Of a stretch of DNA of 64,000 bases, positions 1 to 44,259 are shown piece by piece (position 1 is the stretch's first letter; each line of letters begins with the position of its first letter). This DNA comes from Geosiphon pyriformis uo1 (lineage: Eukaryota > Fungi > Glomeromycota). The notes beneath the pieces were generated by a model. That model made no database searches. It was not told the DNA's origin and saw nothing but the letters and a program-made list of their open reading frames with translations. The stretch lies in assembly GCA_016748015.1 (NCBI GenBank), contig JAAOMT010000723.1:222351-286350 (forward strand). Reading direction: 5' to 3'. The position numbers and the translations under genes are program-made.

Positions 1-635
1 GTGCAAGTTCATAGACTAGTACTACAACAAGTTGTATAAAAGAAGAGCTTTTTTCTTCAAGAAAATGTATCTTACTTTAGATTTATCACTTAGAACTATT
101 CCTACACACACAAAAAAAAATAAAATATCAAATAATTTGAAAAACCAATTTCTTTAAATATTGCACTTGGAAAATCTCCAAAAACCCAACTAACATTTTG
201 AAATTGATTAGCTACCAATTTCAGTAAACTGTTAGTGACTCCAGGCCTGGATAGAAAACGTTTCCCTTAATAAAATCCTATTTCTTTTACATTTCTTTTA
301 TTTTTCTTTTTTTTTCTTATTACAATCATTAGGGTAGCCTACAGATGAGATTCCTGTAGAAGAGTTGACTTTTACAGCAAAATAACTACACATTTTTAGT
401 AAGCTTCTAGATGAGCAATTCCTAGGAAAGAGTTGACATTTACTACAATGTAACTACATAAAGTAACTGGCAAGGGATTGGCCATTCCACTCATAAGCCC
501 AGCAGTTCAAATTATAGGAGATAATTTGAAGATAAATTCAGTTATTGAAGGTTTAACTACTTTTAGAAAACGTGAATTTGCAACCAACAGACATTTACAA
601 CATTCAAAAAAAGAGACCAAAAACCTCTGGTAACA
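1..635 (+). repeat. 3' part of an LTR of the same Gypsy family (3' LTR or solo LTR, truncated by the window edge)
   Basis: Colinear with 23020-23661 and 31690-32324 and ends in ...aaacctctggtaaca. It is followed by atgt rather than the PBS (tttggtgct), so it is not a 5' LTR. Confidence 0.93.
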
Positions 636-5724: not shown

Positions 5725-6705
5725 TGTTACCAGAGGTTTTTAGTCTCTTTTCTTAAATGTTGTTAATGTTGATTTGTTGTGAATTCACGTTTCCAGGAAG
5801 TAGTTGAACCTCCAGTAACTGAATTTATCTTCAAATTATCTCCTATAATTTGAACTTGCTGGGCTTATGAGTGGAATGGCCAATTCTGTGCCAGTTGCTT
5901 TATGTAGTTACATTGTAGTAAACGTCAACTCTTTCCCAAAAATTGCTCGTCTGCGAGCTCACTAAAAATGTGTAGTTACTTTGCTGTAAAAGTCAACTCT
6001 TCTACAGGAATCTTGTCTGTAGGCTACCCTAATAATTATAATAAGAAAAGAAAAAAAATAAAAGAAATGTAAAAGAAATAAAATTTTGTTAAGAGAAATG
6101 TTTTTTATCCAGGCCTGAAGTCACTAACAGTTTACTGAAATTGATAACTAATCAATTTCAAAATGTTAGTTGGGTTTTGAGGATTTTCCAAGTGCAATAA
6201 TTTAAAGAATTTGGTTTTTTGAATTATATAATATTTATTTCTTTTTGTGTGTGTGTAGGAATGGTTCTAAGTAATAAATCTAAAGTAAGATACATTTTCT
6301 TGAAGAAAGATGCTCTTCTTTTATACAACTTGTCGTAACACTATTCTATGAACTTGAACTTTGCTATTTTCTACAATTTTGCTGAACTAAAAATACATTT
6401 CAGCGAACTACAAGTTATTTTTGCAAACTATTAGATATTTTGGTGAACTATCAATTATTTCAGCAAATTTCTACAAATTTCGGCGAACTTTTGAATGTTA
6501 CATAGTTTGGAGTATTGCATAATTTGATCATCGCAATTAGGTTACATTTGTGTTGTATACAAATTGGGTTATTAATTAAATGATAATTTCGGACATTTTG
6601 CTAATGTAATAAGTGATAATTTGAAATGATAATATATGCTAATTAATGATAAGATTTATAAGATAATTTTATGCTAAATAATATCTCTAATTTTGTCTGG
6701 TAACA
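5725..6705 (-). repeat. Gypsy-1 3' LTR (981 bp)
   Basis: Near-identical to 15073-16053 and adjacent to the PPT. Confidence 0.95.
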
Positions 6706-7393
6706 TAGCCTCTTCCTTAAGACTGAGCTTTGTCGAAGTCCAAGTACTGTCTGTAATTTCCAGATAGTAATCCAAAATTATTGAAGAAATTTGGTCTGAA
6801 AATTGTTGAAATTTCAGTTCTGTGAGCTTTCCAATGTATTGAATCTTCAAAGGTCGTAAAATTGGGTTTTGTAGGACATTTTCACAGGTGTGAAATAGGT
6901 TATAAAGTCTAAAAGCAGCTCTGAGCTTGTAATGACTGTTTGTTGGTCCAGCTGTTGTCTTGAATTCATTGTAGAGTTGTTTCTGAATAGCTTCTTTTAT
7001 AAAGTTTGCTGTTGTAAGTTCCAGTTTCCATTCATAGAGTGTTTTTCCAATGTGGAAATATCTATAGATTGGAAGATATTCAGTGTTTTCCTCATTGAGA
7101 CACAGTTGAAGTTTTTGTTGAATTGTAGTATTTAGTAGAATACTAATTGGAGTGAGCATTAGGTTTTCTCTTAAAGCAAGCTTTAAAAGTTCTGGCAGGT
7201 GAATTTCAGAATAACTTCTTGTGTTCTTCTTATATGAGTGATATTTTCGTGAATTTGGGGCTAAATTTGTAACTACTTCTGTTTGGGTATAATTAATGTG
7301 GTTTCCAGTAACAGTAATGGATAATTCGGGTATTGTTTTTAAAGTTAACATTAGTTTTTGGGATAATTGTTGAATGTTTTGAGGAATAGTCAT
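6674..7393 (-). CDS. Gypsy-1 extra 3' ORF (ORF3, 239 aa, unknown function) reading through the PPT into the 3' LTR
   Basis: Intact ATG-to-TAG ORF. A same-length homolog with internal stops lies at 30657-31376. Confidence 0.8.
   Translation of the reverse strand: MTIPQNIQQLSQKLMLTLKTIPELSITVTGNHINYTQTEVVTNLAPNSRKYHSYKKNTRSYSEIHLPELLKLALRENLMLTPISILLNTTIQQKLQLCLNEENTEYLPIYRYFHIGKTLYEWKLELTTANFIKEAIQKQLYNEFKTTAGPTNSHYKLRAAFRLYNLFHTCENVLQNPILRPLKIQYIGKLTELKFQQFSDQISSIILDYYLEITDSTWTSTKLSLKEEAMLPDKIRDII
6709..6718 (-). promoter_or_regulatory. Gypsy-1 polypurine tract
   Basis: The minus strand reads AAGGAAGAGG, 3 nt before the TG of the 3' LTR. The equivalent in copy 2 is GAGGAGGAGG. Confidence 0.85.
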
Positions 7394-7549
7394 TATAAGC
7401 GATTTGAAATAAAAGAAAATTATTTTGGTGTATGGGTTTTTATGTTATTTTTGTTTTGATTGTTTCTAAATTATAAGGAAATAACTAGTAAAATTAAATT
7501 AAGTGTTCAGGTTGAAAGGTTGTTCAATGACAACTATTGGTTCTAAGTT

Positions 7550-8884
7550 TCAGGGAATATCTTCAGGATTGACTAAAGGGGAATGTGTACCAATTTGTAA
7601 AATTAATGGTTCAGGATTGTTTCTGGAATGATAGTGTTTCAAATGATCTCCATGTACAACTTTTGCTAGGATTTTGTCATCAAGTCTTAGTTTGTATGAT
7701 CCATTGCCTAGGACTTCATAGATAAAAAATGGTCCATCCCATTTATTTTCAAATTTTCCACTCCATTGTTTTTCAGCTTTAGTTCTGTGTAAGAGAACTT
7801 TGTTTCCGATTTTAAATTTATTGGTGACTAGAGGCAATTTGTCATCATGTCATTCTTTTTGTTAAGCTTGGGAGTATTCAATATGGGTGGCTGCTATTCA
7901 TTGTTTTCTTTTCAATGTGCTAAGCAAAGTGTAGGCTTTTCGCTGAAGTGTTTCTTGGAAATTGTTTTCATTGATTGGTTGTGCTGGGTATGTTTCCACT
8001 ATGAAACTAATTGGTAATGTTGCTGTCCTTCCATAAGTTAAATCAAATGGTGTGTGTTTTGTGGTATCTTGTTTTAGTGTTTTGTATGCTAGCAACACTG
8101 ATGGAATAAAGATATCCTACTCTTGCTCAAAATCGGTTAAGACTTTGGCTAATGACTTACACAATGTTCTGTTAAAACGTTTCACAAGTCCATTTGTTTG
8201 TGGATGGTAGGGTGAAGACAGAGGTCTTTTGACATTGAATCGTTCACAAATTTCTTGTATTAGGTTGTTCACAAAGTGTGTCTCCTGATTGGATAAAAGT
8301 TCAATTGGACATCCATGTCTACAAATGATGTCTTTGTAGATGAAATTTGCTATTGATTTCACATCTGCTCATTGAATGGCTCTGGCTTTGGGCTATTTAG
8401 TAAGATAGTCTACAGCTACTGCAATATAACAGTTTTCTTAAGTGGTGATAGATAGTGGTCCGACTAAATCGATACCAACTTGGTCAAAGAATTGTCCAAC
8501 TTTGATTGGATTTAATGGTTCAGTAAGGCGTGTTCCTTCTCTTCTTTGACAACTATCACAAAATTCGACATATTTGTAAATGTTTTTTTTCATTCAAGGC
8601 CAAAAATAGTATTCTAGTGTTTTTTGGGTGGTGCCATCTTTTCCGAAGTGTGCTGATAAAAGATTTGAGTACATGTTGTATAATATGGTCTCTTTTTCCT
8701 GTTTTTGTATTAATCTAAGTGGTTTGTTTGGGTTTTTGAAATTTTGATGATAAATAATGTTGTTGTGTAGAAAATATTGTTTGGCTTGTTGTTGTAGTTG
8801 ATGTTTTTCATCTGGAGACCAATCTGTTGGGATTGTTAATGTTTCCAAATATTGCTTGAGATTGTTGTAGTTTTTTGAATTCAT
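7550..8884 (-). pseudogene. Gypsy-1 integrase, separate ORF, decayed
   Basis: Starts MNSKNYNNL at its own ATG. Motifs SAHFG..CDSCQ, GIDLVGP, SSPYHPQTNGLV and the GPY/F motif KWDGPFFIYEVLGNGSYKL. Confidence 0.9.
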
Positions 8885-10778
8885 TGTTTGTTGGCTCTTT
8901 TGGTTGGTTAAGTTGAGTGTTGGTTTTTGTGTTTTCTAATCTTGTCTCATTCTGGAGAGACAGTTAACATTGGTGTAGAGTTTTCCTGGTTTGTGATGTA
9001 CTATGTATTGATAAATTGCTAGAAATTCTGTCCATTGGGTTTGTTTTGCATTTAGCTGAATATTTTTGTTCTGAAGCTATTTGAGTCCAATATTATTAGT
9101 AATAATATCGAATTCTTTAGGCCTGAGATAAATGTTGAAGTGGTGTAGAGCTCAAATTACAGCTGCTGTTTCTAGTTCTATGGCAGGATAATTTTTCTCA
9201 GCTGGTTTTAATGTTCTGCTGGCATAAGCAATTACTTGCTCATTTCTATTGTCATCTAATTGTGATAAGATAGCACCAAAGGCAGTATAAGAGGCATCTG
9301 TTGTTAATTGGAATCGGTTGCTAAAATCTGGGTAGGCGAGGATTGGAGCTGTTGTCAGTTTTTCCTTGAAAATTTCAAAAGCTTTTTGGTGTTTGGTAGT
9401 CCATTTGTATTCAACGTTTTTGGTAGTAAGCTGGTTAAGGGGTTTTGCAATTTCCAAAAATTTTTTGATAAACTTCTGATAGTAGAATGCTAATCCTATG
9501 AATTCTCTTAGTTCTGTAGTGTTTTGAGGAGTTTTGAAGTTTTTGACAATGCTGATTTTTCCAGGGTCCAGTTTGATTCTATCTTTACTAACAATATGCC
9601 CAAGAAAGGCCAAGCTTGTTTTTCCAAAGTAGCATTTTTCGATGTTGAGTTTTAGTTCTGCTTTTCGTAATTGTTAAAAAACTTCTTGTAGGTGTTTTAA
9701 GTGTAATTCGAATGATGGAGAATAAACATCAGTATCATCAAGATAAACAACTACTGACTTCCAAAGAAGTCCTTGGTACACAACATCCATTAATCTCTGA
9801 AATGTTGCTGGTGCATTGCATAATCTGAAAGGCATTACATTGAACTCGTAATTTCTGCCTTGAGTGGTAAATGCTGTCTTGGGGTGATCTTTGGAATCCA
9901 TAGCAACTTGCCAGTAACCGCTTTCTAAATCTAGTGTTAAAAAGTATTTGGATTTTCTAAGAGCATCTAACATGTCATCAATCCAGGGAAGGGGGTAGGC
10001 GTCTCCAATTGTAACACTGTTGAGTTGTCAATAATCAACACAAAATCGGATCTTTCCATTTTTTTTTTTAACTAGCACTACAGATGAAGCCCAAAGACTC
10101 ATGGAGGATTGAATAAGCCCATTGTTAAGCATTTGTTGTACTTCTTCTTGGATGAATTGGTGGCTTTCTGGAGCAACTCGATATGCTTGTTGTCTTCTTG
10201 GTTTGGCATCTCCTGTATAAATTTGGTGTTGGACCAAATTAGTTCTTCCTAAGTCATTGTTGTTTTCAGCAAAGATATCGGCAAATTCTGCAATTAGCTC
10301 TTTGAGCTGGGTCTGTTGTTATGGTTCAAGTTATCCCATGTTGATTTGAGATAGTTTTTCCATAACAACATGGTAGTTTTCAGAGCTGGGGTTTGGGTTG
10401 ATTTTTGGTAGTAAATGTCCAATAATTTCAGAGAAATCGGGAACTGTTTGGAGTAATTTTTGTTAAAATATATTACTGTGAATAACTCCAATTTCTAAAT
10501 TATTTAATAAAATTATGGGGTAATTATTGGGGTTGTAAAAAGTAACTTGGACTTTCTTTGTTCCTTCTGGAATATAAATGTTTGGGATCAAAATATTATG
10601 TTCCAAGCAGACTTGTTTATTGGACTCAAAAATTTGTTGTGTGGTTGTTGGCTTTGGGCAGATGTAGATTTCTGGATGTTCTCCGAAAGGTGAGATGGTA
10701 ATTGGTTGTGGAAGTCTGAAAATCTGGTGGGATTCATTCTGTGTGTTAAGAGTTATATTAACTGGAACTGTAAATCGT

Positions 10779-11170
10779 CTAGTTGAACCAAAATCTCAGG
10801 TTCCTCTATCACTTTTTCCTAATTGTTCTCTTTGATTGACTAGTTGCAAACCCGAAATGTTGATTAGGGGTAGATAAATAGCTTGGGCAATTTTTTCAGC
10901 ATGTTCAATTTTGAATGGTTTGTCAGTTTCATTTTGAAGCATCACTGTAATGTCTCTAGTATATCTAGCATCAATTATTTCTCATCTGACATTGATTTCT
11001 TTGCTTGCCAAAGAGGACTGGGAGGTGATTTGAATCATTGCTCCTGGTGGGATTTCGAGTGCAATTTTGAGGTTGATTTTTGTGAAAGATTTGGGTTTGA
11101 GAACAAGAGTATCCTTGCCTGGATATCTTAGGTCATATCCAGCATCAATTTCATGTGCTTTTTCGGGTTT
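10779..11170 (-). pseudogene. dUTPase domain within Gypsy-1 pol
   Basis: All five trimeric-dUTPase motifs are recognisable: DAGYDL, SxSSLA, IIDAxYT, EKIAQA, RGTxxFGST. Confidence 0.88.
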
Positions 11171-11616
11171 TATTCTTTGTCCATTGTTGTTGAAGTATTT
11201 AAGTTGTAAGGCAGGCTGATTTTCAATAAGGTAGATAGGTGTTGTTTCAATTTCTTCTGTTGCTTTAGGTTTTCCAAATTCAATTTCATTCTCATCATTT
11301 TTGCTGGACAAGGGGATACTAAGAGTGTAGCATTCAAGACACCACTGTTCATCACAAGACATAATGCATTCTTCACATAGCTTAATGTTCATTTGCTCTA
11401 ATCATTGAATTTGAGCTTCTTGGGTTGGGTAGGTGTGACTTGCAATTTGGTGGTAGACTTCTACTTTGTTTTCGTAATCGAATTCAGCTAATTCTATGGT
11501 GTATTTAATGTATTCTGCTTCCTTTATTTGACAAACATCTTCTTTGGTAGCTCCATTAATTAATGTCATTGCTAGGTTGAAAATCATCTCGGCATCATGG
11601 GGGTAGTGATAAAGTT

Positions 11617-12540
11617 TGTTGAGAGCACTGTTGTATGCTGCATTAAAGGGTGTTCCTCTTTTTACTTTTTCTGAAATTGATAAAGCATATTGGCAGGTCT
11701 GATTGCAGACTCTTCCTCTTATGGCTACATCAATCCAATTGTATTCTTCTAGTAGCATATCTCCACAAGTCAAACAAGGGATGTTATCCCATTTTCCACT
11801 CCTTTTTATTAGATGGCCCCATTGTTCTCTGTGGCAAGCCTTGCAGTAATAACAAGTATGATTCTCATATTTTTCTTCAGGTAAAATGCAGGCTCCCATT
11901 GATGATAGTTTTTTGTGGCAGTCCTTACATTTAAGGGGAATATAGAGGCATTGTTTCCTTGGTTCGGGTTTTGAGTAAAGGATATTCCATCCAGAGGTTT
12001 TGGATTCAAAGTGTGGAGTAAAATGTTTTTGTTCTGTTTCATTGGCCCAGTTGAACGTTGATCCAAGANNNNNNNNNNNNNNNNNNNNTGTTGAGAGCAC
12101 TGTTGTATGCTGCATTAAAGGGTGTTCCTCTTTTTACTTTTTCTGAAATTGATAAAGCATATTGGCAGGTCTGATTGCAGACTCTTCCTCTTATGGCTAC
12201 ATCAATCCAATTGTATTCTTCTAGTAGCATATCTCCACAAGTCAAACAAGGGATGTTATCCCATTTTCCACTCCTTTTTATTAGATGGCCCCATTGTTCT
12301 CTGTGGCAAGCCTTGCAGTAATAACAAGTATGATTCTCATATTTTTCTTCAGGTAAAATGCAGGCTCCCATTGATGATAGTTTTTTGTGGCAGTCCTTAC
12401 ATTTAAGGGGAATATAGAGGCATTGTTTCCTTGGTTCGGGTTTTGAGTAAAGGATATTCCATCCAGAGGTTTTGGATTCAAAGTGTGGAGTAAAATGTTT
12501 TTGTTCTGTTTCATTGGCCCAGTTGAACGTTGATCCAAGA
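11617..12540. other. Assembly gap (20 N, 12069-12088) flanked by an exact 452-bp overlap duplication
   Basis: 11617-12068 is identical to 12089-12540. Gypsy-2 has only one copy of this segment. Confidence 0.92.
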
Positions 12541-15052
12541 GCCATGAATGTTTCAATGAGGAGTTTTTCCTCTTCCGGTTCGAATTCAAAAGCTGGGGTT
12601 TTTTCAGAGCATTTGTTGAATGTATTACAAGTGGCAAGTACCCGGGCGTGTTGTCCTTGGTAGGAGATTGTTAACTCTTGTGTTTCCCAATTCAGATTAG
12701 TATTGGCTTTTTGAAGCCAATCATTTCTGACGAGAGCTTGGTACTAGGATGCATCCATTACAAGAACTTTGACTGGAATGGTGATTCCATTAAGAGTGAA
12801 CGGAAAATTGTCAATTTCTCTTACTGAGGTCTTTTTCATGCCATCAGCAGTGACGATTACTGTTTGAGCTGGTCAGTCGACATTTCTCTTTAACTGTTGC
12901 ATTAACTGGTAGGTGATAATGCTTCCAGCAGATTCACTGTCTAGGATCAAGCGAATTGTCTTTTCTTCGACTTTTGTTTCAGTGTACATAGCTGTGATTG
13001 TTTTTTGTTCATTGGCGGCTGCATTGCTAAGCAGGAATGGTAACTCATTTGCTTCTAACTCAAAAGGGAATATATCTGAAAGGTTAGCATTTTCAGCAAT
13101 TCTGGCTGGTGGGATTGTGGTGGGAGTATAAGAAAGGTTTTGTTGTTGTGTTGCAGCTCTACCTTCTAAGGGTGCAGTATGGTGAAAATCCTGTTCTTCT
13201 GGCATTGTTAAATAACTGGGTTGAGTGTGGTAGTGGTTGGGTCTTGGTTAAATGGAATTTTGGAGAACCAATTGGTTGTTTGAACTGATTCTATTGTTGT
13301 TTACTTGGTATCAGTTTTGTGGTGTGAATTGATTTTGTGTGATTAGTCTTCGAGCAGGTACTTGATAATATTGTGTGTGTAGTTGTTGGTATTGCTGTTA
13401 GATTGGCTGTGAGACAGACTGATAATAGTTATTTTGGTATTGGGGTCTTGGTAGATAGTAAGCTGGTGGTAGTGGTTGATAATAAGATTGCTGTGGTGGA
13501 GGGTAACGTTGATTACTCCTATTTTGTTGGTCTCGTTGTAGCTTTCTGCAATCTTTTTTCCAGTGACCAGAGATTCCACAGTAATGGCAATTCTGAGGCT
13601 GGTTATTGGAAAGTGATACAAAGTTATTTTGATTTCATCTTTGGGGTGATTGATATCTTTGGGGTTGCTGTTGTTGTTGATTGGTGAAATAGTTTTCAAC
13701 CTTCTTTGTAAGTTGGTCAATTTTTTCCTCAGCTGCTAAGCTGGTTTTTCCAATTGCCAAATTTACAAGTTTTGTGCGATTGGCCTCTTCCATGGCCATT
13801 TTGTATCTTTTCACATGCTGTGTGGCAGAGTTTAAATCTTCTGGCACATGTGGGCAAACTTTTTTAATTAGTTTATCTTTTAGACCAGCAATAAATTGAT
13901 CCAAGATTTGAGTATTGGAATAATAATTATTTGTTTCAAGTTGGTGAATTTGTCTGAGAAGTTTGTTGAATTTCCCAATATAAGTCATAACAGATTCGAA
14001 GGGTTCTTGTTTGATATTTTGAAAACAATTGTGAAGGGTAATGGAGGTATTATTGTTGGTAAACTGTTCAAGAAAAGCTGCTTTGAAAGTGTTCCAATCA
14101 TTGAATAGGGCAGCCAAGTTTTCAAACCATTCTCCTGCTGTTCTTTTGAGAAAATAGAGAATTGTTCTTAACATTCTGGCAGCATTCCATCTATTTGCAT
14201 CTCCAGCTTTAGTAACTTGGTCAAGCCATTCTTGGGGACTGGTCTCAATGTCTTCTCCATTAAATTCAGAGATTTTTGCGATGTATGTTGTCATTTTGTG
14301 TTCTTCATTTTCACTGTTTATTGATTTTTTTTCAGATATTTCAAAGTCATTTTCTTTGTTTGCTGCTGTCTTAGAGTGTTCACTTTGATTTTCAGCCAGA
14401 AAGTCAAGGAGATTGGAACTAGTTTGAAGGGGTTCTTGTTGTCTGATGGGACTTCTGAGTGATGTAAAATCTTCTGGTCTTGCAAATCAATTTAAGGGTG
14501 AATTAGGTGTTTGTGCTTGTGCAAGTGAAGCTAAAAAAAGTGTAATAGTAAGTAGAAGTTTTGAACTGGTTCTTTGTTCAGGTGTTTGTAAATGGTTGGC
14601 AGTTGTTTTTGGTAGTGTTAGAGTATTTGGGGTGGTTTTTGAGTATTGCTTCAATTTGTTTTTGCCTTTGTTGCTTGTTTCTGTTTCCGATTCAAAATCA
14701 ATAGAGTATTAAGACTGCACTGGATATGTTTCTTCACAGTATTTGATAATGTTAAAATTAAGTTTGTGAAAGTAAGTGGCAAGTGTTTCACTGTTAAGGT
14801 CTTCAGTTCCCAACTGTGAATAGTGTGCTAAATTATTGTAAAGGTTGCTTCTAACTTCTGAGATATTGTAATTTCCAAAAAGATAATTGTTGATGCGGTT
14901 TTCAATGTATTGGTATACTGATTTCTTGACAACTTTAATTCCATCTGGAATGTTGAATCTTTGCTTGCAGTGGGTGTAAATTGATTGGTAATACTCTAGA
15001 GTTGTTGCATCTGGTGTGGTCGCCACTTTGAATTTTGTTGTTGCTGTGTTAT

Positions 15053-15070
15053 TTTTGTGAAAGAGCACCA
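15053..15070 (-). promoter_or_regulatory. Gypsy-1 primer-binding site
   Basis: The minus strand reads TGGTGCTCTTTCACAAAA, 2 nt after the 5' LTR end. It is a decayed version of the copy-2 PBS. Confidence 0.85.
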
Positions 15071-15072
15071 AA

Positions 15073-16053
15073 TGTTACCAGAGATTTTTGGTCTCTTTTC
15101 TTAAATGTTGTTAATGTTAATTTGTTGTGAATTCACGTTTCCAGGAAGTAATTGAATCTCCAGTAATTGAATTTATCTTCAAATTATCTCCTATAATTTG
15201 AACTTGCTGGACTTATGAGTGGAATAGCCAATTCCATGCCAGTTGCTTTATGTAGTTACATTGTAGTAAACGTCAACTCTTTCCCAAAAATTGCTCATCT
15301 GAGAGCTCACTAAAAATGTGTAATTACTTTGCTGTAAAAGTCAACTCTTCTACAGGAATCTTGTCTGTAAGCTATCTTAATAATTGTAATAAGAAAAGAA
15401 AAAAAATAAAAGAAATGTAAAAGAAATAAAATTTTGTTAAGAGAAATGTTTTCTATCCAGGCCTGGAGTCACTAACAGTTTACTGAAATTGATAGCTAAT
15501 CAATTTCAAAATGTTAGTTGGGTTTTGAGGATTTTCCAAGTGCAATAATTTAAAGAATTTGGTTTTTTGAATTATTTAATATTTATTTCTTTTTGTGTGT
15601 GTGTAGGAATGGTTCTAAGTGATAAATCTAAAGTAAGATACATTTTCTCAAAGAGAAATGCTCTTCTTTTATACAACTTGTTATAACACTATTCTATGAA
15701 CTTGAACTTTGCTATTTTCTACAATTTTGCTGAACTAAAGATACATTTCAGCAAACTACAAGTTATTTCTACAAACTATTAGATATTTCGGTGAACTATC
15801 AATTATTTCTACAAATTTCTACAAATTTCGGCGAACTTTTGAATATTACATAGTTTGGAGTATTGCATAATTTGATCATCGCAATTAGATTACATTTGTG
15901 TTGTATATAAATTGGGTTATTAATTAAATGATAATTTCGGACATTTTGCTAATGTAATAAGTGATAATTTGAAACAATAATATATGCTAATTAATGATAG
16001 GATTTATAAGATAATTTCATGCTAAATAATATCTTTAATTTCGTCTGGTAACA
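15073..16053 (-). repeat. Gypsy-1 5' LTR (981 bp)
   Basis: Near-identical to 5725-6705 and adjacent to the PBS. Confidence 0.95.
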
Positions 16054-21407: not shown

Positions 21408-21544
21408 TGTTGCCTTGTCTGGCCTGAGTGGCTAGTTACATGTAGAAAAATGCATGAGCTGCATTTAGTTTAAGCTTCTTAGTTTGGTTCTATGTACTAG
21501 ATAGTGGTTGGACTTTACTCATTAAAAGCATAATAAAAAAAAAA
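21408..21544 (+). promoter_or_regulatory. LINE-A 3' UTR with conserved stem-loop and A-tail
   Basis: Alignable with the LINE-B 3' UTR (21878-22019, minus strand). Hairpin at 21428-21462. Confidence 0.7.
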
Positions 21545-22019
21545 TTACAAAGTTTGTTATATTTTATATTTATTGTTATTTTTTTAAAAAAAAATATATA
21601 AGAATATCAAAATTTAAGTTAAATTTTGTTAATTATAATAATATTTTGCTATTTATTTTAAAAAATCAAATTATATTAATTTTGTTTTTGTTTATTAAAT
21701 AGTTTTAATAAAAAAAAAATAATTGTCATAAAAAATGTTTTTAAGATTAAATTAATTAATTTTTTAGCTATGTAATTTTTAAAATTTAAAATTTAATTAT
21801 TTAAATATATAATTATGCATATTTTATTTTTTTAATTATCTAAGTTTATATTATTATTATTTCAAATTTTAAAAAACTTTTATTTTTTTATTTATTTATT
21901 AGGTTTAACAAGTACAGCCCAACCACTACCTAATTATATAAAAACCAACAAGTCTTATATTAAGTATGGCTTATGTATTTTTCACATGTGACCAGCTACT
22001 CAAGCCAGTCAAGACAACA

Positions 22020-22682
22020 CTACACACCAAGAACACTAGCTATAGGGAAATTATGTAGAAAACCAAACTGCACACTATTCAAATGAGGATGGAGACCGAA
22101 ACATATATGTATACCTAACTTAATCCCCAAGGTATAAATCATGCCACAGGACCAAACTGAAGACAAACCAGTTACTAATGGGACAATAGATCCATCATGT
22201 GGCAAAAGACCATGCTTTTTATAATGGGCTCTTAGTTTGGCCCTTGGCAGCCATATACTAGATCTGTAATTCTCAGCAAAATGATAAACCAGATCAACCA
22301 TCAGGGATTCACTATTTGACTTAATCCCCAAAAACTGCTTTGCCTTAGCCACCCAGTCCTTAAACACGAAACCTTTAGACAAAGACATATACAAACAATC
22401 TGAGTTTGCTGTCTCATGAAGCAAGCAAACCATCACATCACAGATGGCATGCGCACTCAACAAAATCATCCAATCTGTGATGGCTTCTAATATTAAGTCA
22501 TTATGAGTGTTGACATTGAAAACACAAACAAATGTGTAATCTGAATTTTCTAAAAGTCTACAATAAATGCACAACACACTAGGATAACCTGGATTATATA
22601 ATTTTTTTCTCTTGGCCACAGACAACTGATGGTGCAAGACTTTTATGAAATACAAATGGAGCATCACAGAAGCAGAACTCAT
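22020..22682 (-). pseudogene. LINE-B ORF2 C-terminal part
   Basis: YFIKVLHHQLSVAKRKKLY..CIYC..ENSDY..C aligns with the LINE-A ORF2 C-terminus at 20780-21407. Confidence 0.88.
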
Positions 22683-23661
22683 TGTTACCAGACAAAATTA
22701 GAGATATTATTTAGCATGAAATTATCTTATAATTCCTATTATTAGCATATGTTATCATTTCAAATGATCACTTATTACATTAGCAAAAATGTCCGAAATT
22801 ATCATTTAATCAATAACCCAAATTGTACACAACACAAATGTAACCTAATTGTGATGATCAATCATGCAATACCCCAAACTATGTAACATTCAGAAGTTTG
22901 CCAAAATTTGTAGAAATTCGCTGAAATAATTGATAGTTCACCGAAATATCTAATAGTTTGCCAAAATAACTTGTAGTTCGCCGAAATGTATCTTTAGTTC
23001 AGCAAAATTGTAGAAAATAGCAAAGTTCAAATTTATAGAATAGTGTTACAACAAGTTGTATAAAAAAAGAGCTTTTCTTTTCGAGAAAATATATCTTACT
23101 TTAGATTTATCTCTTAAAACCGTTCTTATACACACAAAAAGAAATAAATATCAAATAAATTCAAAAAACCAAATTCTTTAATTATTGTACTTGGAAAATC
23201 CCCAAAACCCAACTAACATTTCGAAATTGATTAGCTACCAATTTCAGTAAACTGTTAGTGACTCCAGGCCTGAATAGAAAACGTTTCTCTTGACAAAATT
23301 CTATTTCTGTTACATTTCTTTTATTTTCTTTTATTTTTTTTATTACAATTATTAGAGTAGCCTACAGACAAGATTCCTGTAGAAGAGTTGACTTTCACAG
23401 CAAAGTAACTACACATTTTTAGTGAGCTTCCAGACGAGCAATTCCTGGGAAAGAGTTGACATTTACTACAACATAACTACATAAAGCAACTGGCATGGAA
23501 TTGGCCATTTCACTTATAAGCCCAGCAAGTTCAAATTATAGGAGATAATTTGAAGTTAAAAATTCAGTTACTGGAGGTTTAACCACATCCAGAAAACGTG
23601 AATTCACAGCAAATAAGTATCAACAACATTACAGAAAAGAGACCAAAAACCTCTGGTAACA
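22683..23661 (+). repeat. Gypsy-2 5' LTR (979 bp)
   Basis: TGTTACCAGA...TCTGGTAACA ends. Internal AGTTCGCCGAAAT-type repeats and TATAAAA at 23059-23065. Confidence 0.95.
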
Positions 23662-23662
23662 T

Positions 23663-26600
23663 TTGGTGCTCTCCCACGGAAATAACACAGCAACAAAATT
23701 CAAAGTGGCAACTGCCTTAGACATCACAACCTTAGAGTACTATCAATCGATTTATACACACTGCAAACAACAATTTGAAATATGTGACGGAATCATAGCT
23801 TTCAAGAAAACACTTTTTCAATACATCAAAAATCGAATCAACAACTATCTCTTTGGGAACTATAACATTACAACAGTTAAAAGAGATCTTCTTGAAAATA
23901 TACTACACTATTCCAACACCAAATTAAAAAACATTAGTACTGAAGCTTACACTACTTATTTTGAGGAACTCGATTATAATATTATTCGATTCTGTGAAGA
24001 AAAATATCTTGCAAACACACAATTTGCCTTTGAACTCAAATCTGAACCTGAAACCAGTAGCAACAAAAGACAAAAAGATAACCAACCTGTTCACACAACA
24101 CCCAATACTCCCAAAATACCATTCAAACATTTACAAACACCTGAACAAGGAACCAGCTCAAAACTTCCACTTACTATCACACCTTTTTCAGCTTCACTTG
24201 CACAAGCCCAAACACCTAATTTACCCTTGAATTGATTTACAAGACCAGAAGATTTTACATCACTCAGAAGCCCCACCAGACAACAAGAACCTCTTCAAAC
24301 TAGTTTCAATTTCCTTGATTTTCTAGTTGAAAACCAAAGTGAACACTTTGAGACAGCAGCAAATGAAGAAAACAACTCTGAAATAACCGAAAAAAAATCA
24401 ATAGACAGTGAAAACAAAGAAAACAAAATGACAATATACATTGCAAAAATCCCTGAATTCAATGGAAAAGATATTAAGACCAGTCCCCAAGAATGGCTCG
24501 ACCAAGTTACTAAAGCTGGAGATGCAAATAGATGGAATGCTGCCAAAATGTTAAGAACAATTCCCTACTTTCTCAAAGGAACAGCAGGAGAATGGTTTGA
24601 AAATCTTGTCACCCCATTCAATGATTGGAACGCTTTCAAAGCAGCCTTCCTTGAACAATTCACTGACAATAATATCTCCATCACTCTTCGCAATCGTTTT
24701 TGAAATATCAAACAAGAACCCTCCGAATCCGTTATGACTTATATTGGAAAATTCAACAAACTTCTCAGATGGATTTGCCAACTCGAGACAAACGATTATT
24801 ATTCTGATGCTTAAATCTTGGATCAATTTATCGCTGGTCTAAAAGATAAACTAATTAAAAAAGTTTGTCCACACATGCCAGAAGATTTAAACTCTGCCAT
24901 ACAGCATGCAAAAAGATACAAAATGGCCATGGAAGAGGCCAATTGTACAAAACTTGTAAATTTGGCAATTAGAGAAACCAGTTCAGTAGCTGAGAAAAAA
25001 ATTGACCAACTCACAAAGAAGGTCGAAAACTATTTTACCAACTAACAACAACAACAACCACAAAGATATCAACCACCCCAAAAATGAAATCAAAATAACT
25101 TTGCACCACTTTCCAATAACCAGCCCCAGAATTGCCATTACTGTGGAATCTCTGGCCACTGGAAAAAAGATTGCAAAAAGCTACAACGAGACCAACAAAA
25201 CAGGAGTAATCAATGTTACTCTCCACCACAGCAATTTTATTATCAACCATCACTACCAGCTTACTATCCACCAAGATCCTAATACCAAAATAACTATTAT
25301 CAGCCTGCCCCACAACTAATCCAACAGCAATACCAACAACCATCCACACAACATTATCAAGTACCTACTCGAAGACCGATTACACAAAATCAATTCACAC
25401 CACAAAACCGATACCAAGTAAACAACAATAGAATCAGTTTGAACAACCAATTGGTTCCCCGAAATTCTACTCAACCAAGACCCAACCACTACCACACTCA
25501 ACCCAGTTATTTAACAATGCCAGAAGAACAGGATTTTCACCATACTACACTTTTGGAAGGTAGAGCTGCAGCACAACAACAACAAAACTCTTCTCATAAT
25601 CACACCACTATTCCACCAGCCCGAATTGCTGAAAATACCAATCTCTCTGATATCTTTCCTTTTGAATTTGAAGCAAATGAATCACCATTCTTGCTTAGCA
25701 ATACAGTGACTAATGAGCAAAAAGCCATTACTGCAATGTACACAGAAGCTGAAGTAGAAGGAAAGCCAATTCGCTTGATCCTAGACAGTGGATCTGCCAG
25801 AAGCATTATCACCTACCAGTTAATACAACAGTTGAAAAAAAATGTCGACCGACCAGCTCAAACAGTAATTGTCACTGCCGATAGCATGAAAAAGACACCA
25901 GTAGGAGAAATTGACAATTTTCCATTCACTCTTGATGGAATCACCATTCCAGTCAAAGTTCTTGTAATAAACGCACTCCAGTACCAAGCTCTTATCCGAA
26001 ATAATTGGCTTCAAAAAGCCAATGCTAATCTGAATTGGGAAACACAAGAGTTAACAATCTCCTATCAAGGACAACATGCCCGGGTACCTGCCATTTGTGG
26101 TACATTCAACAAATACTCTGAAAAAGCCCCGGCTTTTGAATTTGAACCAGAAGAAGAAAAACTAATAATCGAAACATTTATGGCTCTTGGATTAATGTCC
26201 AACTGGGCCAATGAAACAGAACAAGAACATTTTACTCCACACACTAAACCCAAAACCTCTGGATGGAATATACCTTACTCGAAACCCGAACCAAAGAAAC
26301 GATGCCCCTATATTCCCCTTAAATGTAAGGACTGCCACAAGAAACTATTGTCAATGGGAGCCTGCATTTCACCTGAAGAAGAATATGAGAATCATACTTG
26401 TTATTACTGCAAAGCTTGTCACAGAGAGCGATGGGACCATCTAATAAAAAGGAGCAGAAAATGGGACAACACTCCTTGTTTGACTTGTGAAGATATGCTA
26501 CCAGAAGAATACAATTGGATTGATATAGCAATAAGAGGAGGCGTCTGCGATCAGACCTGCCAATATGCTTTATTAATTTCAGAAAAAGTAAAAAGAGGAG

Positions 26601-29104
26601 CACCCTTTAATGCAGCATACAACAGTGCTCTCAACAAACTTTATCACTACTCTCATGATGCCAAGATGATTTTTGACTTAGCAATGACATTAATTAATGG
26701 AGCTACCAAAGAAGATGTTCATCAAATGAAGGAAGCAGAATACATTGAATACACTATAGAATTAGCTAGATTCGATTACGAAAATGAAGTAGAAGTCTAC
26801 CACCAAATTGCAAGTCACACCTACCTGATCCAAGAAGCTCAAATTCAACAATTAGAGCAAATAAACATTAGGTTATGTGAAGAATGCATTATGCCTTGCG
26901 ATGAACAGTGGTGTCCTAAATGCTATGCTCTTAGTATTCCCTTGCCCAGCAAAAATGATGAGAATGAAATTGAATTTGGAGAACCTGAAGAAATGGAAGA
27001 AATTGAAACAACACTCATCTACCTTATCAAAAATCAGCTTGCCTTACAACTTAAATACTTCAACAACAATGGACAAGGAATAAAACCCGAAAAAGCACAC
27101 AAAATTGATGCTGGATATGACCTAAGATATCCAGGCAAGGATACTCTTGTTCTCAAACCCAAATCTTTTACAAAAATCAATCTTAAAATTGCACTCGAAA
27201 TCCTGCCAGGAGCAATGGTTCAAATTGCCTCCTGGTCCTCTCTGGCAAGCAAAAGAATCAATGTTAGAGAAGGAATAATCGATGCTGGATATACTGGAAA
27301 CATAACAGTGATGCTTCAAAATGAAATTGACAAACCAATTACCATCTCACTTTTTGGAGAACATCCAGAAATCTACATCTGCCCAAAGCCAACAACCACA
27401 CAACAAATTTTTGAGTCCAATAAGCAAGTCTGCTTGGAACATAATATTTTGATTCCAAACATTTATATTCTAAAAGGAACAAAGAAAGTCCGAATCACTT
27501 TTTACAACCCCAATAATTACCCCATAATTTTATTAAATAATTTAGAAATTGGAGTTATTCACAGTAATATATTTCAACAAGAATTACCCCAAATAGTTCC
27601 TGATTTTTCTGAAATTATTGGACATTCAATACCAAAAACCAACCCAAACCTCAGCTCCAAAAACTACCATGTTGTCATGGAAAAACTATCTCGAATCAAC
27701 ATGGGACAACTTGAACCACAACAACAGATCCAGCTCAAAGAGCTAATTGCAGAATTTGCTGACATCTTTGCTGAAAACAACAATGACTTAGGAAGAACTG
27801 ATTTGGTTCAACACCAAATCTATACAGGAGATGCCAAACCAAGGCGACAACAAGCCTACTAAGTTGTCCCAGAAAGTCACCAATTTATCCGAGAAGAAGT
27901 ACAATAGATGCTTAACAATGGGCTTATTCAACCATCAATGAGCCCATGGGTCTCACCTGTGGTCCTAATTAAAAAGAAAAATGGGAAGATACAATTTTGT
28001 GTTGATTACCGACAACTCAACAGTGTCACCATTGGGGATGTCTACCCTCTTCCCCGAATTGATGACATGTTGGATGCCCTTGGAAAGTCCAAATACTTTT
28101 CAACATTAGATTTAGAAAGTGGATACTGGCAAGTTGCTATGGACCCCAAAGACCACCTCAAAACAGCATTCACCACTCAAGGAGGAAATTACAAGTTCAA
28201 TGTAATGCCTTTCGGATTATGCAATGCACCAGCAACATTCCAAAGACTCATGGATGTTGTTTACAAAGGCCTCCTTTGGAAATCAGTAGTAGTTTATCTT
28301 GATGACACTGATGTTTATTCACCATCTTTCTAGCTACATTTAATTCACCTGCGAGAAGTTTTTCAACGATTACGGAAAGCAGGATTGAAACTGAACATTG
28401 AAAAATGCTACTTTGGAAAAACAAGTTTAGCTTTTCTTGGTCACATTGTTAGCAAAGATGGAATTAAACCAGACCCCAAAAAAATCAGTACTGTCAAAAA
28501 CTTCAAGACTCCACAAAATACCACAGAATTAAGAGGATTTATTGGATTAGCATCCTATTACCGAAAATTCATCAAAGGATTCTCAGAAATTGCAAAACCC
28601 CTCAACCAGCTCACTACTAAAAATGTCAAATACAAATGGACAGAAGAACACCAAAATGCCTTCGAGATACTTAAGGAAAAACTCACAACAGTTCCAATCC
28701 TCGCCTACCCAGACTTCAGCAACTGATTTCGGTTAGCAACTGACGCCTCTTATACTGCCTTTGGTGCCATCCTATCACAGTTAGATGACAATGGAAATGA
28801 GCGAGTAATTGCTTATGCTAGTAGAACATTAAAGCCAGCCGAAAAGAACTATCCCACAACAGAATTAGAAACCACAACAGTAATCTGGGCCCTACATCAC
28901 TTCAACCTTTATCTCAGACCCAAAAAATTCGATATTATCACTGATAATATTGGACTTAAATGGCTTCAAAACAAAAACACCCAGCTGAATGCAAAACAAA
29001 CCCGATGGACAATATTTTTAGCTAATTACTGATACATTGTACACCACAAACCAGGAAAACTCCACACCAATGTTGATTGTCTCTCAAGAATAAGGCAAGA
29101 TTAG
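23663..29104 (+). pseudogene. Gypsy-2 gag-PR-(Zn fingers)-dUTPase-RT-RNase H polyprotein, a single frame interrupted only by point stops
   Basis: ORF-track pieces at 23663, 24428, 24818, 25439, 27908 and 28385 share one frame. Zinc knuckle CHYCGISGHWKKDC (25133-25174), protease LDSGS (about 25781), RT YLDD (28295-28306), ends ..DCLSRIRQD-TAG. Confidence 0.93.
23664..23681 (+). promoter_or_regulatory. Gypsy-2 primer-binding site (non-initiator tRNA ending ...GGAGAGCA-CCA)
   Basis: TGGTGCTCTCCCACGGAA lies 2 nt after the LTR and starts with TGG, complementary to the tRNA CCA end. Confidence 0.85.
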
Positions 29105-29153
29105 AAAACAAAACCAACACCCATTTGAATTAACAGCATCAAAACAACAAACA

Positions 29154-30489
29154 ATGAACCCCAAAAACTACAACAATCTCAAACAATATTTAGAGACATT
29201 AACAATCCCAACAGATTGGTCCCCAGACGAAAAACATTAGTTACAACAACAAGCCAAACAATATTTTCTACACAACAACATTATCTATCATCGAAATTTC
29301 AAAAACCCAACCAAACCACTCAGATTAATACAAGAACAAGAAAAAGAGACCATTTTATACAATATGTACTCAGATTCTTCATCAGCACACTTCGGAAAAG
29401 ATAGCACCACCCAAAGAAACACTAGAATACTACTTTTGGCCTTGAATAAAAAAAGACATTCATGAATATGTCGAATCTTGTGATAGTTGTCAAAGAAGAG
29501 GAGGAACTTGCCCTACTGAACCTTTAAATTCAATCAAAATTGGACAGCCTTTTGACAGAGTCGGCATTGATTTAGTCGGACCACTATCTATCACTACCCA
29601 AGGAAACTGTTATATTGCAGTAGCTGTAGACTACCTTACTAAATGGCCTGAAGCCAGAGCCATTCAACAAATAGATGCAAAATCAGTAGCAAATTTCATC
29701 TACGAAGACATCATTTGTAGACATAGATGTCCAATTGAGCTTTTATCCGATCAGGGAACACACTTTGTGAACAACCTGATACAAGAAATTTGTGAATGAT
29801 TCAATGTCAAAAGATCTCTGTCTTTGTCCTACCATCCACAAACAAACAGACTTGTGGAATGTTTTAACAGAACATTGTGTGAGTCATTAGCCAAAGTCTC
29901 AACCGATTTTGAGCAAGAATGGGATCTCTTTATTCCATCAGTGTTACTAGCATATAGGACATTAAAACAAGATACCACGAAACACACACCATTTGATTTA
30001 ACTTATGGAAGGACAGCAACGTTACCAATTAGTTTCACAGTGGAAACATACCCAGCACAACTGATCGATGAAAACAATTTCCAAGAAACACTTCAGCAAA
30101 GAGCCTATACTCTGCTTAGCACATTGGAAGGAAAACGACAAATAGCAGCCACCCATATTGAACACTCTCAAGCTCAACAAAAAGAACGGCATGATGACAA
30201 ATTGCCTTCAGTTACCAATAAATTCGAAATTAGAAACAAAGTTCTCTTACACAAAACTAAAGCTGAAAAACAATGGAGTAGAAAATTTGAAAATAAATGG
30301 GATAGACCATTCTTTATCCATGAAGTCCTAGGCAATGGATCATACAAGCTAAGACTCGATGACAAAATCCTAGCAAAAGTTGTACATGGAGATCGTTTGA
30401 AACACTATTATTCCAGAAACAATCCTGAACTATTAATTCCACGAATTGGTACACATTCCCCTTTGGTCAGTCCTGAAGATATTCTATGA
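29154..30489 (+). pseudogene. Gypsy-2 integrase, separate ORF (one frameshift near 29415, several stops)
   Basis: Starts MNPKNYNNL at its own ATG. HFG..CDSCQ, VGIDLVGP, SDQGTHF, YHPQTNxLVE and GPY/F region. No chromodomain seen. Confidence 0.9.
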
Positions 30490-30656
30490 AACTTAGAACC
30501 AATAGTTGTCATTGAACAACCTTCCAACCTGAATACTTAATTTAATTTTACTAGTTATTTTTTTATAATTTAGAAACAATCTCACAAAAACAAAACAAAA
30601 ATAACATAAAAACCCATACACCAAAAATAATTTTCTTTTATTTCAAATCGCTTATA

Positions 30657-31376
30657 ATGACTATTCCTCAAAACATTCAACAATTATCCCAAAAACTAAT
30701 GTTAGCTTTAAAAACAATACCCAAATTATCTATTACTGTTACTGGAAACCACATTAATTATACCCAAACAGAAGTAGTTACAAATTTAGCCCTAAACTCA
30801 TGAAAATATTACCCATATAAGAAGAACACCAGAAGTTATACTGGAATTCACCTGCCAGAACTTTTAAAGCTTGCTTTAAGAGAAAACCTAATGCTCACTT
30901 CAATTAGTATTCCACCAAATGCTACAAGTCAACAAAGACTTCAATTGTGTCTTAATGAGGAAAACACTGAATATCCTCCAATCTAATGATATTTTCACAT
31001 TGGAAAAACACTCTACGAACGGAAACTGGAACTTACAACAGCAAACCTCACAAAAGAAGCTATTCAAAAACAACTCCACCATGAATTCAAGACAACAGCT
31101 GGACCAACAAACAGTCGCTACAAGCTCAGAGCTGCTCTTAGACTTTATGACCTATTCCACACCTGTGAAAACGTACTGCAAAACCCAATTTTTCAACCTT
31201 TGAAGATTCAATATATTGGAAAGCTCACAGAACTGAAATTTCAACAATTTTCAGACCAAATTTCTTCAATAATTTTGGATTATTATCTGGAAATAACAGA
31301 CAGTACTTGGACTTCGACAGAGCTCAGTCTTGAGGAGGAGGTTATGTTATTAGACAAAATTAGAGATATTATTTAG
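30657..31376 (+). pseudogene. Gypsy-2 ORF3 (239 codons, internal stops)
   Basis: Colinear with 6674-7393. Stops at about 30801 and 30984-30989. Confidence 0.82.
31332..31341 (+). promoter_or_regulatory. Gypsy-2 polypurine tract
   Basis: GAGGAGGAGG, 3 nt upstream of the 3' LTR. Confidence 0.85.
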
Positions 31377-32324
31377 CATGAAATTATCTTATAATTCCTA
31401 TTATTAGCATATGTTATCATTTCAAATGATCACTTATTACATTAGCAAAAATGTCCGAAATTATCATTTAATCAATAACCCAAATTGTACACAACACAAA
31501 TGTAATCTAATTGTGATGATCAAGCATGTAATACCCCGAACTATGTAACATTCAAAAGTTTGCCGAAATTTGTAGAAATTCGCTGAAATAATTGATAGTT
31601 CACCGAAATATCTAATAGTTTGCCGAAATAACTTGTAATTCGCCGAAATGTATCTTTAGTTCAGCAAAATTGTAGAAAATAGTAAAGTTCAAGTTCATAG
31701 AATAGTGTTACAACAAGTTGTATAAAAGAAGAGCATTTCTCTTTGAGAAAATGTATCTTACTTTAGATTTATCACTTAGAACCATTCCTACACACACACA
31801 AAAAGAAATAAATATTAAATAATTTGAAAAACCAAATTCTTTAATTATTGTACTTGGAAAATTCCCAAAACTCAACTAACATTTCGAAATTGATTAGCTA
31901 CCAATTTCAGTAAACTGTTAGTGACTCCAGGCCTGAATAGAAAACGTTTCTCTTGACAAAATTCTATTTCTGTTACATTTCTTTTATTTTCTTTTATTTT
32001 TTTTATTACAATCATTAGGGTAGCCTACAGACGAGATTCCTGTAGAAGAGTTGACTTTCACAGCAAAGTAACTACACATTTTTAGTGAGCTTCCAGACGA
32101 GCAATTCCTGGGAAAGAGTTGACGTTTACTACAACATAACTACATAAAGCAACTGGCACGGAATTGGCCATTCCACTCATAAGCCCAGCAAGTTCAAATT
32201 ATAGGAGATAATTTAAAGTTAAAAATTCAGTTACTGGAGGTTCAACCATATCCAGAAAACGTGAATTCACAGCAAATAAGTATTAACAACATTACAGAAA
32301 AGAGACCAAAAACCTCCGGTAACA
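31345..32324 (+). repeat. Gypsy-2 3' LTR (980 bp)
   Basis: Near-identical to 22683-23661. Starts TGTTATTAGA (mutated) and ends CTCCGGTAACA. Confidence 0.95.
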
Positions 32325-35300: not shown

Positions 35301-36353
35301 GTCTACAGTACAACTCAAACTCAGACTCTTTACAATCTTTGTCACCAGAAGTTCTAACCTAAAAAACTTGGAAAAATATTTGTTCTTCATACACACAAAG
35401 TCACTGAACCAATATTTGGAGAAAATTTTATCAGCTGACATCACCACAGTCTCTTTCAGAATGTTCCATATTGTATCCAAATCCCTAAGGTTCTTTGCCA
35501 GGTTGAATTTAGGCAAAACTATAGCAAATTTATCAAACAAGTATTCTCTGAAACATAGCCATTTACCAGCATTAGCATCCTTGATCTTAAACTTCTACTT
35601 GTCCCTATTGGCTTGCTTACATAAACTATTTAAATCAGAATCCACAAGACCCCCCAACCCAATCAAGACTGAAACTGCCCGATAATCAGTGTTGAAAAAT
35701 TTCACAACAGAGCCAATCTCGTGGCCAGCAACAGCAAAAGATAAATTGCAACTAACAAAGATAAAGTCAATAGTTCTTTTAATCTCTCACGAGTTGGACC
35801 ATATAGGAGCTTTGACCAGCATATAATCAACGAATGAATTTACCAAACCCAAATCAGAACAAAACTTGACACTTGCACTCTTTCCTTTCCTGTTTTCATT
35901 GAAATCCCCACCCAAAACCACAAATGTGCTAAAATTGACTGCTTTGACAATGAAAGAATTGACAACTGAAACTTGACTAAATCTTGACTCAGTGGAAGCA
36001 CCAGCATACAACCCCACAACGAATATTAAGATCTTGTCCTTAAAAAGAAGTCTAATTGAAATAACTCATCCAGGAATCTCTTCTACCTTAGAAACATGCT
36101 GAGCCAGACATTCATTCATGATAACTGCCATACCAGCTTTTAGAAAACCTTTCTCCAGCCCAGAAGTGAATATCTGCACACCATCAAATTTTTTCATAAT
36201 TCATGGCCTTATGCTAGACCTTAATTTAGTTTCAGTAATAAAGGAAATCATGTTACCCGAATTCATGTGCCACTATATGACATCATCTTGCTTTGCTCGA
36301 ACATTAAGGCCTCTAACATTGCATGTAGCAAATTTCCAAATCAAGTCACTTAT
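32325..36353 (-). pseudogene. LINE-B ORF2 (APE, RT, RNase H), main part
   Basis: WKFATCNVRGLNV, LGGDFNE, AGAFVDDIIW, IYTDS..AEMQAI..FTDS, GNERAD. The start ATG is mutated to ATA. Confidence 0.9.
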
Positions 36354-44022: not shown

Positions 44023-44259
44023 TCTAGAACGGAAAAAAGTTGATAAGAGGGCTTAGTAGCCAAATGAAAAGTTTCTCGTAGCTTTTTAATTTTCAATATA
44101 ATTCTGGTCGAGCATGATCTGGAAGGCTAGATAATTTCAGATAACAACATTAGTAAATCAAAACTTAGTCCCATTGACCCGAACACCAAGAACCATCCTT
44201 AAGTTCCATGGCTTCTGGTATTCTTTAAGTTACCTGCAGTTTATCTTTTAGGGTTTAAA

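Follow-up and report, generated by a model that had tools for sequence, protein, structure and literature searches.

Within a 64,000-nucleotide stretch of the Geosiphon pyriformis uo1 genome (contig JAAOMT010000723.1, positions 222,351 to 286,350 of the forward strand; hereafter the window), self-comparison identified two decayed full-length copies of one Ty3/Gypsy retrotransposon with long terminal repeats (LTRs), copy A on the plus strand and copy B on the minus strand. In both copies, a first open reading frame (ORF1) running from Gag to RNase H closes at a stop codon, a stand-alone integrase follows as ORF2, and a third frame (ORF3) encodes 239 amino acids (aa). This three-ORF plan, proposed for both copies in an earlier note on this DNA, was confirmed. 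Pfam places Retrotrans_gag, zf-CCHC, protease, dUTPase, reverse transcriptase (RT) and RNase H in one frame and the rve/H2C2 integrase in a later one. The features at the center of the analysis are listed below in window coordinates.

22683..32324, plus strand: copy A, LTR to LTR
5725..16053, minus strand: copy B, same plan as A (RNase H stop 8938-8936, integrase 8884-7499, assembly gap 12069-12088)
23705..29104, plus strand: ORF1, Gag-protease-zinc insert-dUTPase-RT-RNase H, inferred GUG start, ending in TAG at 29102-29104
29105..29153, plus strand: spacer from the RNase H stop to the integrase ATG, 49 nt, A/C-rich, ATG-free and unstructured (51 nt in B, with indel differences)
29154..30540, plus strand: ORF2, stand-alone integrase with HHCC motif, DDE core and SH3/GPY-F-like end, no chromodomain
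30564..30571, plus strand: non-canonical TATA-like element, TATAATTT, lying 93 nt ahead of the ORF3 start codon (relatives have canonical boxes at this position)
30657..31376, plus strand: ORF3, 239 aa, overlapping the polypurine tract (PPT) and the LTR start, with three stops in A; intact in B at 7393-6674, minus strand

The split between RNase H and integrase is inherited and is not a product of decay. Both copies share the RNase H TAG, though the proportion of synonymous differences (pS) across RT/RNase H is 0.39-0.50 and the spacers differ by indels. Such sharing alone is insufficient: the earlier note had taken shared features as ancestral, an unsafe argument given that four TGA stops, probably products of parallel CpG decay, are also common to A and B, and it is other evidence that makes the RNase H stop ancestral, namely its invariance in a contig pile-up, a conserved integrase start and the state of the relatives. 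The pile-up drew 502 contigs from one DNA run (possibly the source sample) over positions 29050-29190 and listed variants of at least 2%, leaving differences near contig ends unlisted; it lists no variant at the RNase H stop and varies at six nearby sites, and 17 contigs leave the reference right at the stop, completing TAA. Among the best 120 of 841 integrase homologs, from a search that excluded fused lengths, the initiating Met falls at the same column in 101, the others being 3 with a Met after a short extension, 14 with a later Met, 1 partial sequence and 1 chimeric gene model. These homologs are 41-51% identical to the window integrase, with one exception, and five are named Rhizophagus.

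Relatives were collected by a length-blind DNA scan of 17 of the 64 parts of a metagenome collection, from which the best 80 of 542 loci were kept. A junction was scorable where a locus held both an RNase H end and an integrase (n=39; loci L081 and L082 left out). All 39 are split before an ATG-started integrase, most without internal stops, and none is fused; a purine occupies position -3 in 37 of 41 integrase starts. The lone fused element seen, L081 from a viral collection, has a continuous gag-pol and is a distant outgroup. An origin from an ordinary continuous pol, with the stop a decay product or a codon that is read through, is suggested by copy B, where integrase lies in the same frame after one stop, and by the four other stops common to both copies. 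Against this, integrase occupies all three frames relative to RNase H across the 39 loci, with gaps of -20 to +943 nt, the stop is TAG or TAA and not a CpG product, and the integrase Met is conserved; we consider this origin very improbable for the window element, and as a general account the junction survey refutes it.

In other respects the element is a regular Ty3/Gypsy member. It shares with Ty3 itself TG...CA LTR ends, a primer binding site (PBS), a PPT and the domain order protease-RT-RNase H-integrase, and it has a target-site duplication (TSD) of 4 bp (4-6 bp being the range for the group). Its RT-RNase H, which has a single RNase H and no tether, matches Ty3 best at 334 bits, ahead of the second-best family (226 bits) and of foamy virus (151 bits), and Ty3 is the best Protein Data Bank (PDB) match of both RT-RNase H (E 1e-98) and integrase (5e-27). 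Unlike Ty3, the element has a separate integrase ORF, no gag-pol frameshift, a conserved third ORF and an inferred GUG start. Integrase within the Pol polyprotein, which is usual in Ty3/Gypsy elements but does not define them, is lacking. In a quick tree search over the fetched loci alone, L002 is sister to the window element with support 100, and split loci span branches of more than one change per site. A continuous pol in most relatives, the finding that the earlier note had named as counting against its distinct Ty3/Gypsy lineage, occurs in 0 of 39, and that lineage stands. We regard it as very nearly certain, as far as architecture goes, that this is a real, inherited Ty3/Gypsy variant, apparently undescribed.

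Several other assignments were rejected. A chromovirus was set aside, as no chromo match appeared at E 0.1 and SH3_Tf2-1 was matched weakly. Ginger/GIN-type DNA transposons carry a stand-alone gypsy-like integrase between inverted repeats and have no RT; here RNase H precedes integrase in the 39 loci, and LTRs, PBS and PPT are present. Troyka and Kuafuorterviruses have CG...CG ends and a 3-bp TSD (PMC12440569, PMC11673190), as opposed to TG...CA and 4 bp in the window.

How a detached integrase would be translated was assessed from the 39 junctions. The RNase H stop lies -20 to +97 nt from the integrase ATG in 28 loci, with 11 within 20 nt (two or three starts are uncertain), and in 34 of the 39 some upstream ORF ends near that ATG. 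Spacers of up to 100 nt (17 loci plus both window copies) contain 4 ATGs where about 15 are expected, while 6 of 11 long spacers hold a small ORF, itself begun by an ATG, whose end lies close to the integrase start codon (1.9 expected; 0 of 100 shuffles). Ahead of integrase there is no excess of TATA (4/36 vs 3.9 expected) or of a branch point followed by AG (19/36 vs 19.5 expected). Nearby stops, ATG-poor spacers, linking ORFs and the lack of TATA or branch-AG excess together favor stop-coupled reinitiation: the LTR transcript would yield one polyprotein from the GUG start without a gag-pol frameshift, and ribosomes that had terminated behind RNase H would resume at the following AUG, giving a lower dose of free integrase that would enter particles without a Gag tether. 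Stop-restart translation occurs in fungal viruses and in SART1. The present elements resemble those cases in AUGA or UAAUG overlaps at 5 of 39 loci; they differ in that no LTR-element integrase is involved there and most gaps here exceed an overlap in length. At L014:602-736, L040:848-1400 and L055:393-548, small basic ORFs form a chain between RNase H and integrase in which each link is a stop-start overlap.

The main rival to reinitiation, by reason of the five loci without a nearby stop, is a subgenomic mRNA of its own for integrase, made from a TATA-less internal start or by splicing from the leader. Foamy virus Pol is made in this way, from its own subgenomic mRNA. Gaps of up to 943 nt would suit such a message, as would the ATG-free leaders and good Kozak context, which befit a 5′ untranslated region equally well; an internal promoter seems to serve ORF3 in these very elements, and the ORF3s of bdelloids are said to be expressed from spliced messages (PMC5408684). 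A subgenomic mRNA has, however, no need of exact overlaps or of small linking ORFs that end at the ATG, and the missing TATA and branch-AG excess argues against it, so that we hold it to be unlikely, if worth keeping in view.

A 37-38-nt hairpin before the integrase ATG, its stem covarying at four pairs, brought in a further alternative, internal ribosome entry on the genomic RNA aided by RNA structure ahead of the AUG. The motif occurs at L019:4464-4500 and in L017, L018, L024, L029, L035, L036, L039, L042 and L079, which form a subclade (10 of 82 loci), ends 0-25 nt before the ATG in the nine that were aligned, and has no Rfam match in the six loci scanned; its exact pattern has one match among viral contigs (L083). 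It is absent from the window, whose spacer is unstructured, and from 72 of the 82 loci, and it could equally serve restart or packaging, leaving internal entry improbable. Rfam returned nothing credible in window positions 5000-33000 or in six relatives' loci. At L056:6706-7432, a 727-nt non-coding pre-integrase spacer without an Rfam match contains what look like several stems, matches the final part of the hairpin motif over 13 nt, and is possibly a larger structured RNA.

ORF3 was characterized in parallel. The best 120 of 203 homologs consist of 119 proteins under the name Geosiphon pyriformis and the window protein itself; 35 matches, six of them distant, came from a profile search across 1.84 billion representatives, and a metagenome scan with a narrow ORF3 alignment gave none. 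Iteration over the ORFs 3′ of integrase converged on one ORF3 family of 130-290 aa, present in 26 of the 40 loci with at least 600 nt past integrase (23 in the profile and 3 independent; reversed controls ≤3.1 bits). Against a non-Geosiphon profile, the window ORF3 scores 12.4 bits and a Geosiphon paralogue 22.9, the best of 2000 shuffles reaching 9.9; the window protein thus appears to belong to this short family by a link that is weak but real and is backed by position. A profile match at probability 99.6 is partly circular and was not relied on. All 28 rows examined have a core of net basic charge, in which a G and A-x-R-x-Y-x-L-F are conserved. A confident structural model (eight helices, predicted local distance difference test (pLDDT) 89, diverse alignment) was obtained for a relative's 150-aa form and not for the window's 239-aa protein, a Geosiphon-only alignment giving pLDDT 38.

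No credible match to ORF3 was found in Pfam, PHROGs, PDB sequences or the ESM Atlas, and an Mdm2 match at E 0.05 was treated as chance. The model has no Foldseek match at E 0.001 and no viral fold match, an absence that does not prove a new fold; its best structural match (Z 5.7, root-mean-square deviation 3.2 over 80 residues) tied with generic helical rows. ORF3 may be a soluble nucleic-acid-binding regulator, a guess from its charge, position and dispensability, and would then act in anti-silencing, transcription or targeting and not as a particle or envelope protein. Its place between integrase and the 3′ LTR, together with a dUTPase as found in some retroviruses (PMC2864245, PMC2774666), could instead point to an env-like protein and a fungal retrovirus-like agent. 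This we judge highly unlikely, as the protein is a small basic helical fold without viral match and contains no hydrophobic segment (hydropathy over 19 residues peaks at 1.29 for the window protein and at ≤1.71 in all 36 rows). An env-bearing element was rejected on the same grounds, there being neither a transmembrane anchor nor a fusion-protein fold. The "retrovirus-like" complexity inferred in the earlier note is therefore not supported in that form: ORF3 has no transmembrane or env match, RT-RNase H is nearest to Ty3, and a dUTPase between protease and RT was already known from fungal gypsy elements (PMC2864245).

Upstream of ORF3, TATAWAW occurs 20-120 nt ahead of the ATG in 22 of 30 loci (4.2 expected) and in the next 100 nt further upstream in 5 of 30; within non-coding spacers only, the count is 12 of 17 (2.9 expected). 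The pre-ORF3 regions are mostly unrelated in sequence among loci. This pattern suggests that ORF3 may be expressed from its own internal promoter.

At L009:1945-2886 the ORF3 slot is occupied by a gene for a Nudix hydrolase (E 1e-10), which has a TATA some 55 nt upstream and adds to dUTPase another enzyme of nucleotide sanitation in this clade. The slot protein at L050:2985-3851 seems to resemble a family of hypothetical proteins that is greatly expanded in arbuscular mycorrhizal fungi, a possible source or derivative of ORF3.

Taken jointly, the best reading is a split-pol Ty3/Gypsy element whose integrase would be made by stop-coupled reinitiation and whose ORF3 would be expressed from an internal promoter as an accessory factor, to which we assign a probability of roughly 0.55. 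Textbook stop-restart translation works through overlaps. Several observations weigh against the joint reading. The 49-51-nt gap of the window exceeds such overlaps, with no structure in the spacer, and five of the 39 loci (L006, L010, L011, L053 and L056) lack any ORF whose end comes within 100 nt of the integrase start codon. ORF3 is missing from 14 of the 40 relatives and from some subclades, its non-circular score of 12.4 bits, with a shuffle best of 9.9, is weak, and its function is drawn from charge and position only. The antisense TATA pattern is also common (14/30), partly since TATA is palindromic, and the window copies carry TATAAT only, not a canonical box. Finally, the relatives are metagenome contigs, not host-assigned genomes.

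ORF1, from which the polyprotein would derive, contains the following parts in copy A.

23705..24424, plus strand: N-terminal Gag extension without ATG, coding by the ratio of nonsynonymous to synonymous difference proportions (pN/pS), no family match
24425..24934, plus strand: Gag capsid region, Retrotrans_gag / Ty3_capsid (Pfam)
25130..25180, plus strand: CCHC zinc knuckle, then a Q/P/Y/N-rich linker (Pfam zf-CCHC, under the family cut-off)
25715..26065, plus strand: aspartic protease, DSG (Pfam)
26324..26923, plus strand: Cys-rich insert, six CxxC/CxxxC motifs, three putative zinc sites (sequence; no family match)
27086..27346, plus strand: dUTPase of the trimeric type, from which A has lost the last 71 codons; full in B at 10775-11203, minus strand
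27968..29029, plus strand: RT (YLDD) and Ty3-type RNase H (Pfam)

The Gag extension is coding, as its pN/pS between the copies is 0.37 at about 60% identity, and it has no match to the relatives' extensions. In copy A, 41 nt past the start of the PBS, there is a GTG in the Gag frame that has A at -3 and G at +4, and it recurs in copy B and in two loose-end groups of the DNA run; five relatives carry an ATG 50-82 nt past the LTR end. Gag translation likely starts at this GUG. All six CxxC/CxxxC motifs of the zinc insert are kept in both A and B, in keeping with the three-zinc-finger insert described earlier, for which no match was found in Pfam or the ESM Atlas. Identity with a Cys/His-rich RNase H extension of relatives was rejected, the two being non-homologous. 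That extension, long, acidic, C-terminal and a putative zinc module without Pfam match, occurs in L019:3497-4438, L024, L029, L037, L042 and L056, and in L017 and L039 it forms a small ORF of its own. Both dUTPase, which would keep uracil out of cDNA, and the zinc insert are absent from 15 of 15 relatives having protease and RT, and are family-level add-ons, not clade-wide traits. The modules are accordingly not one package: the split integrase is clade-wide, ORF3 is common, and dUTPase and the zinc insert belong to the family.

Comparison with described systems places single features but not the whole. The general Ty3/Gypsy plan has one or two proteins with integrase within Pol (PMC12440569). 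Within fungal gypsy pol, dUTPase is known from PosPlaTy3-5 of Postia, Tmt1 of Tuber and Phanerochaete elements (PMC2864245), and PosPlaTy3-5 likewise places it between protease and RT; that survey, in the part available, covers chromodomain elements, unlike the window element with no chromodomain match, and mentions no split integrase. The Juno, Vesta and TelKA elements of bdelloid rotifers resemble the present clade in having dUTPase and a variable ORF3 slot (Nudix in L009 here) but keep integrase within pol, and the proteins in their ORF3 slot are of env, GDSL, DEDDy or transmembrane kinds (PMC5408684). Maize Grande GENE23 is a small nuclear accessory gene between pol and the 3′ LTR with its own promoter (PMC7264820), a likeness by description and not by homology comparison; it is antisense, whereas ORF3 is sense. 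The extra ORFs of plant elements vary in kind even inside one lineage (PMC6317226), in contrast to the single ORF3 family that spans this deep clade. A separate downstream ORF is not among the integrase states named in the available text of PMC2774666, and gypsy elements of these fungi are treated in bulk only in the parts available of PMC11952901 and bioRxiv 2021.03.30.436303. PMC5718144 and PMC5009743 yielded nothing that bears on it. Literature searches found no description of this plan; Repbase, GyDB and the supplements of the two mycorrhizal-fungus papers may hold consensus families that affect its novelty.

LTR elements normally bring integrase into particles as part of Gag-Pol. A clade with free integrase would need another packaging route and another control of enzyme dose, and its intact-looking members (loci without internal stops and named Rhizophagus proteins) make this testable. 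LTR elements form 41% of the G. pyriformis genome (PMC11952901), and these fungi are reported to methylate transposons at CG (bioRxiv 2021.03.30.436303), making ORF3 a candidate element-encoded regulator in CG-methylating fungi. Since family ORF3s are deposited as many "hypothetical proteins", their recognition corrects gene catalogues. A far-reaching version, which we offer as doubtful, is an undescribed deep Metaviridae clade of arbuscular mycorrhizal fungi and relatives with a three-tier expression new for LTR elements: a GUG-started Gag-RT polyprotein, a reinitiated free integrase packaged in trans, and a TATA-driven helical protein of new fold that would counter CG-methylation silencing or steer integration to CG.

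The ends and insertion sites of the two copies are given by the remaining features.

22679..22682, plus strand: left TSD of copy A, TCAT; partner TTGT, inferred original TCGT (sequence and empty-site joint)
22683..23661, plus strand: copy A 5′ LTR, TG...CA ends (sequence comparison)
23664..23679, plus strand: PBS, TGG start, 2 nt past the LTR (sequence)
31332..31341, plus strand: PPT, reading E-E-E within ORF3 (sequence)
31345..32324, plus strand: copy A 3′ LTR (sequence comparison)
16053-15073 and 6705-5725, minus strand: copy B LTRs (sequence comparison)
1..635, plus strand: third LTR of the family, 3′ part only, 88-90% alike, then ATGT

The LTR pair is 95.9% identical in copy A (37 of 40 differences are transitions) and 95.5% in copy B, against 91-92% between copies, with indels private to each pair. 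Because LTRs are more alike within than between copies and the indels are pair-private, A and B are separate insertions, as the earlier note had it, and their target sites differ. A contig joint at 22678|32325 represents the empty site of A, skipping 9646 = 9642+4 nt. The 4-bp target duplications have mutated (TCAT/TTGT for A, ATGC/ACGT for B), with differences in each pair of the sort that decay of a central CG leaves, and CG is now merely 0.4-0.8% in flanks of an old LINE-type look; two to three sites only suggest a CG-centred target preference. No tRNA gene was found in the window.

Both copies are dead. The description "two full copies" holds for length but not for integrity: in copy A, ORF1 is interrupted by 11 in-frame stops, integrase is frameshifted near 29417 by a 1-nt insertion private to this copy, and a 213-nt in-frame deletion removed the dUTPase C-terminus, and copy B has a 20-N assembly gap plus a 472-nt exact duplication (window 11617-12388) that is an assembly artefact. 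CpG observed/expected is 0.40 and 0.27 in the two copies vs 0.96 in the gene-rich part of the window. Between copies, RT/RNase H and the Gag extension have diverged more than integrase or ORF3, and this unevenness suggests recombination between subfamilies.

Contigs of L012, L019, L021, L035, L037, L042, L046 and L060 read integrase-(ORF3)-single LTR-Gag, most likely because the assembly collapsed at the LTR, although tandem forms or circles with one LTR are possible. Within the window, A and B lie inside decayed LINE-like sequence with RT and RNase H-like ORFs (4187-5724, 16054-22682 and 32325-38200), and the right flank of A is 64-67% like the flank of B. Host genes with normal CpG content lie at 42508-44052 (minus strand), 44800-46569, 53207-54580 and 58285-58878, and presumably include a cyclophilin-RRM protein (labelled from motifs) and a FUN14-like ORF. 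At 63430-63575, a 68% match to part of the LTR marks an old relic.

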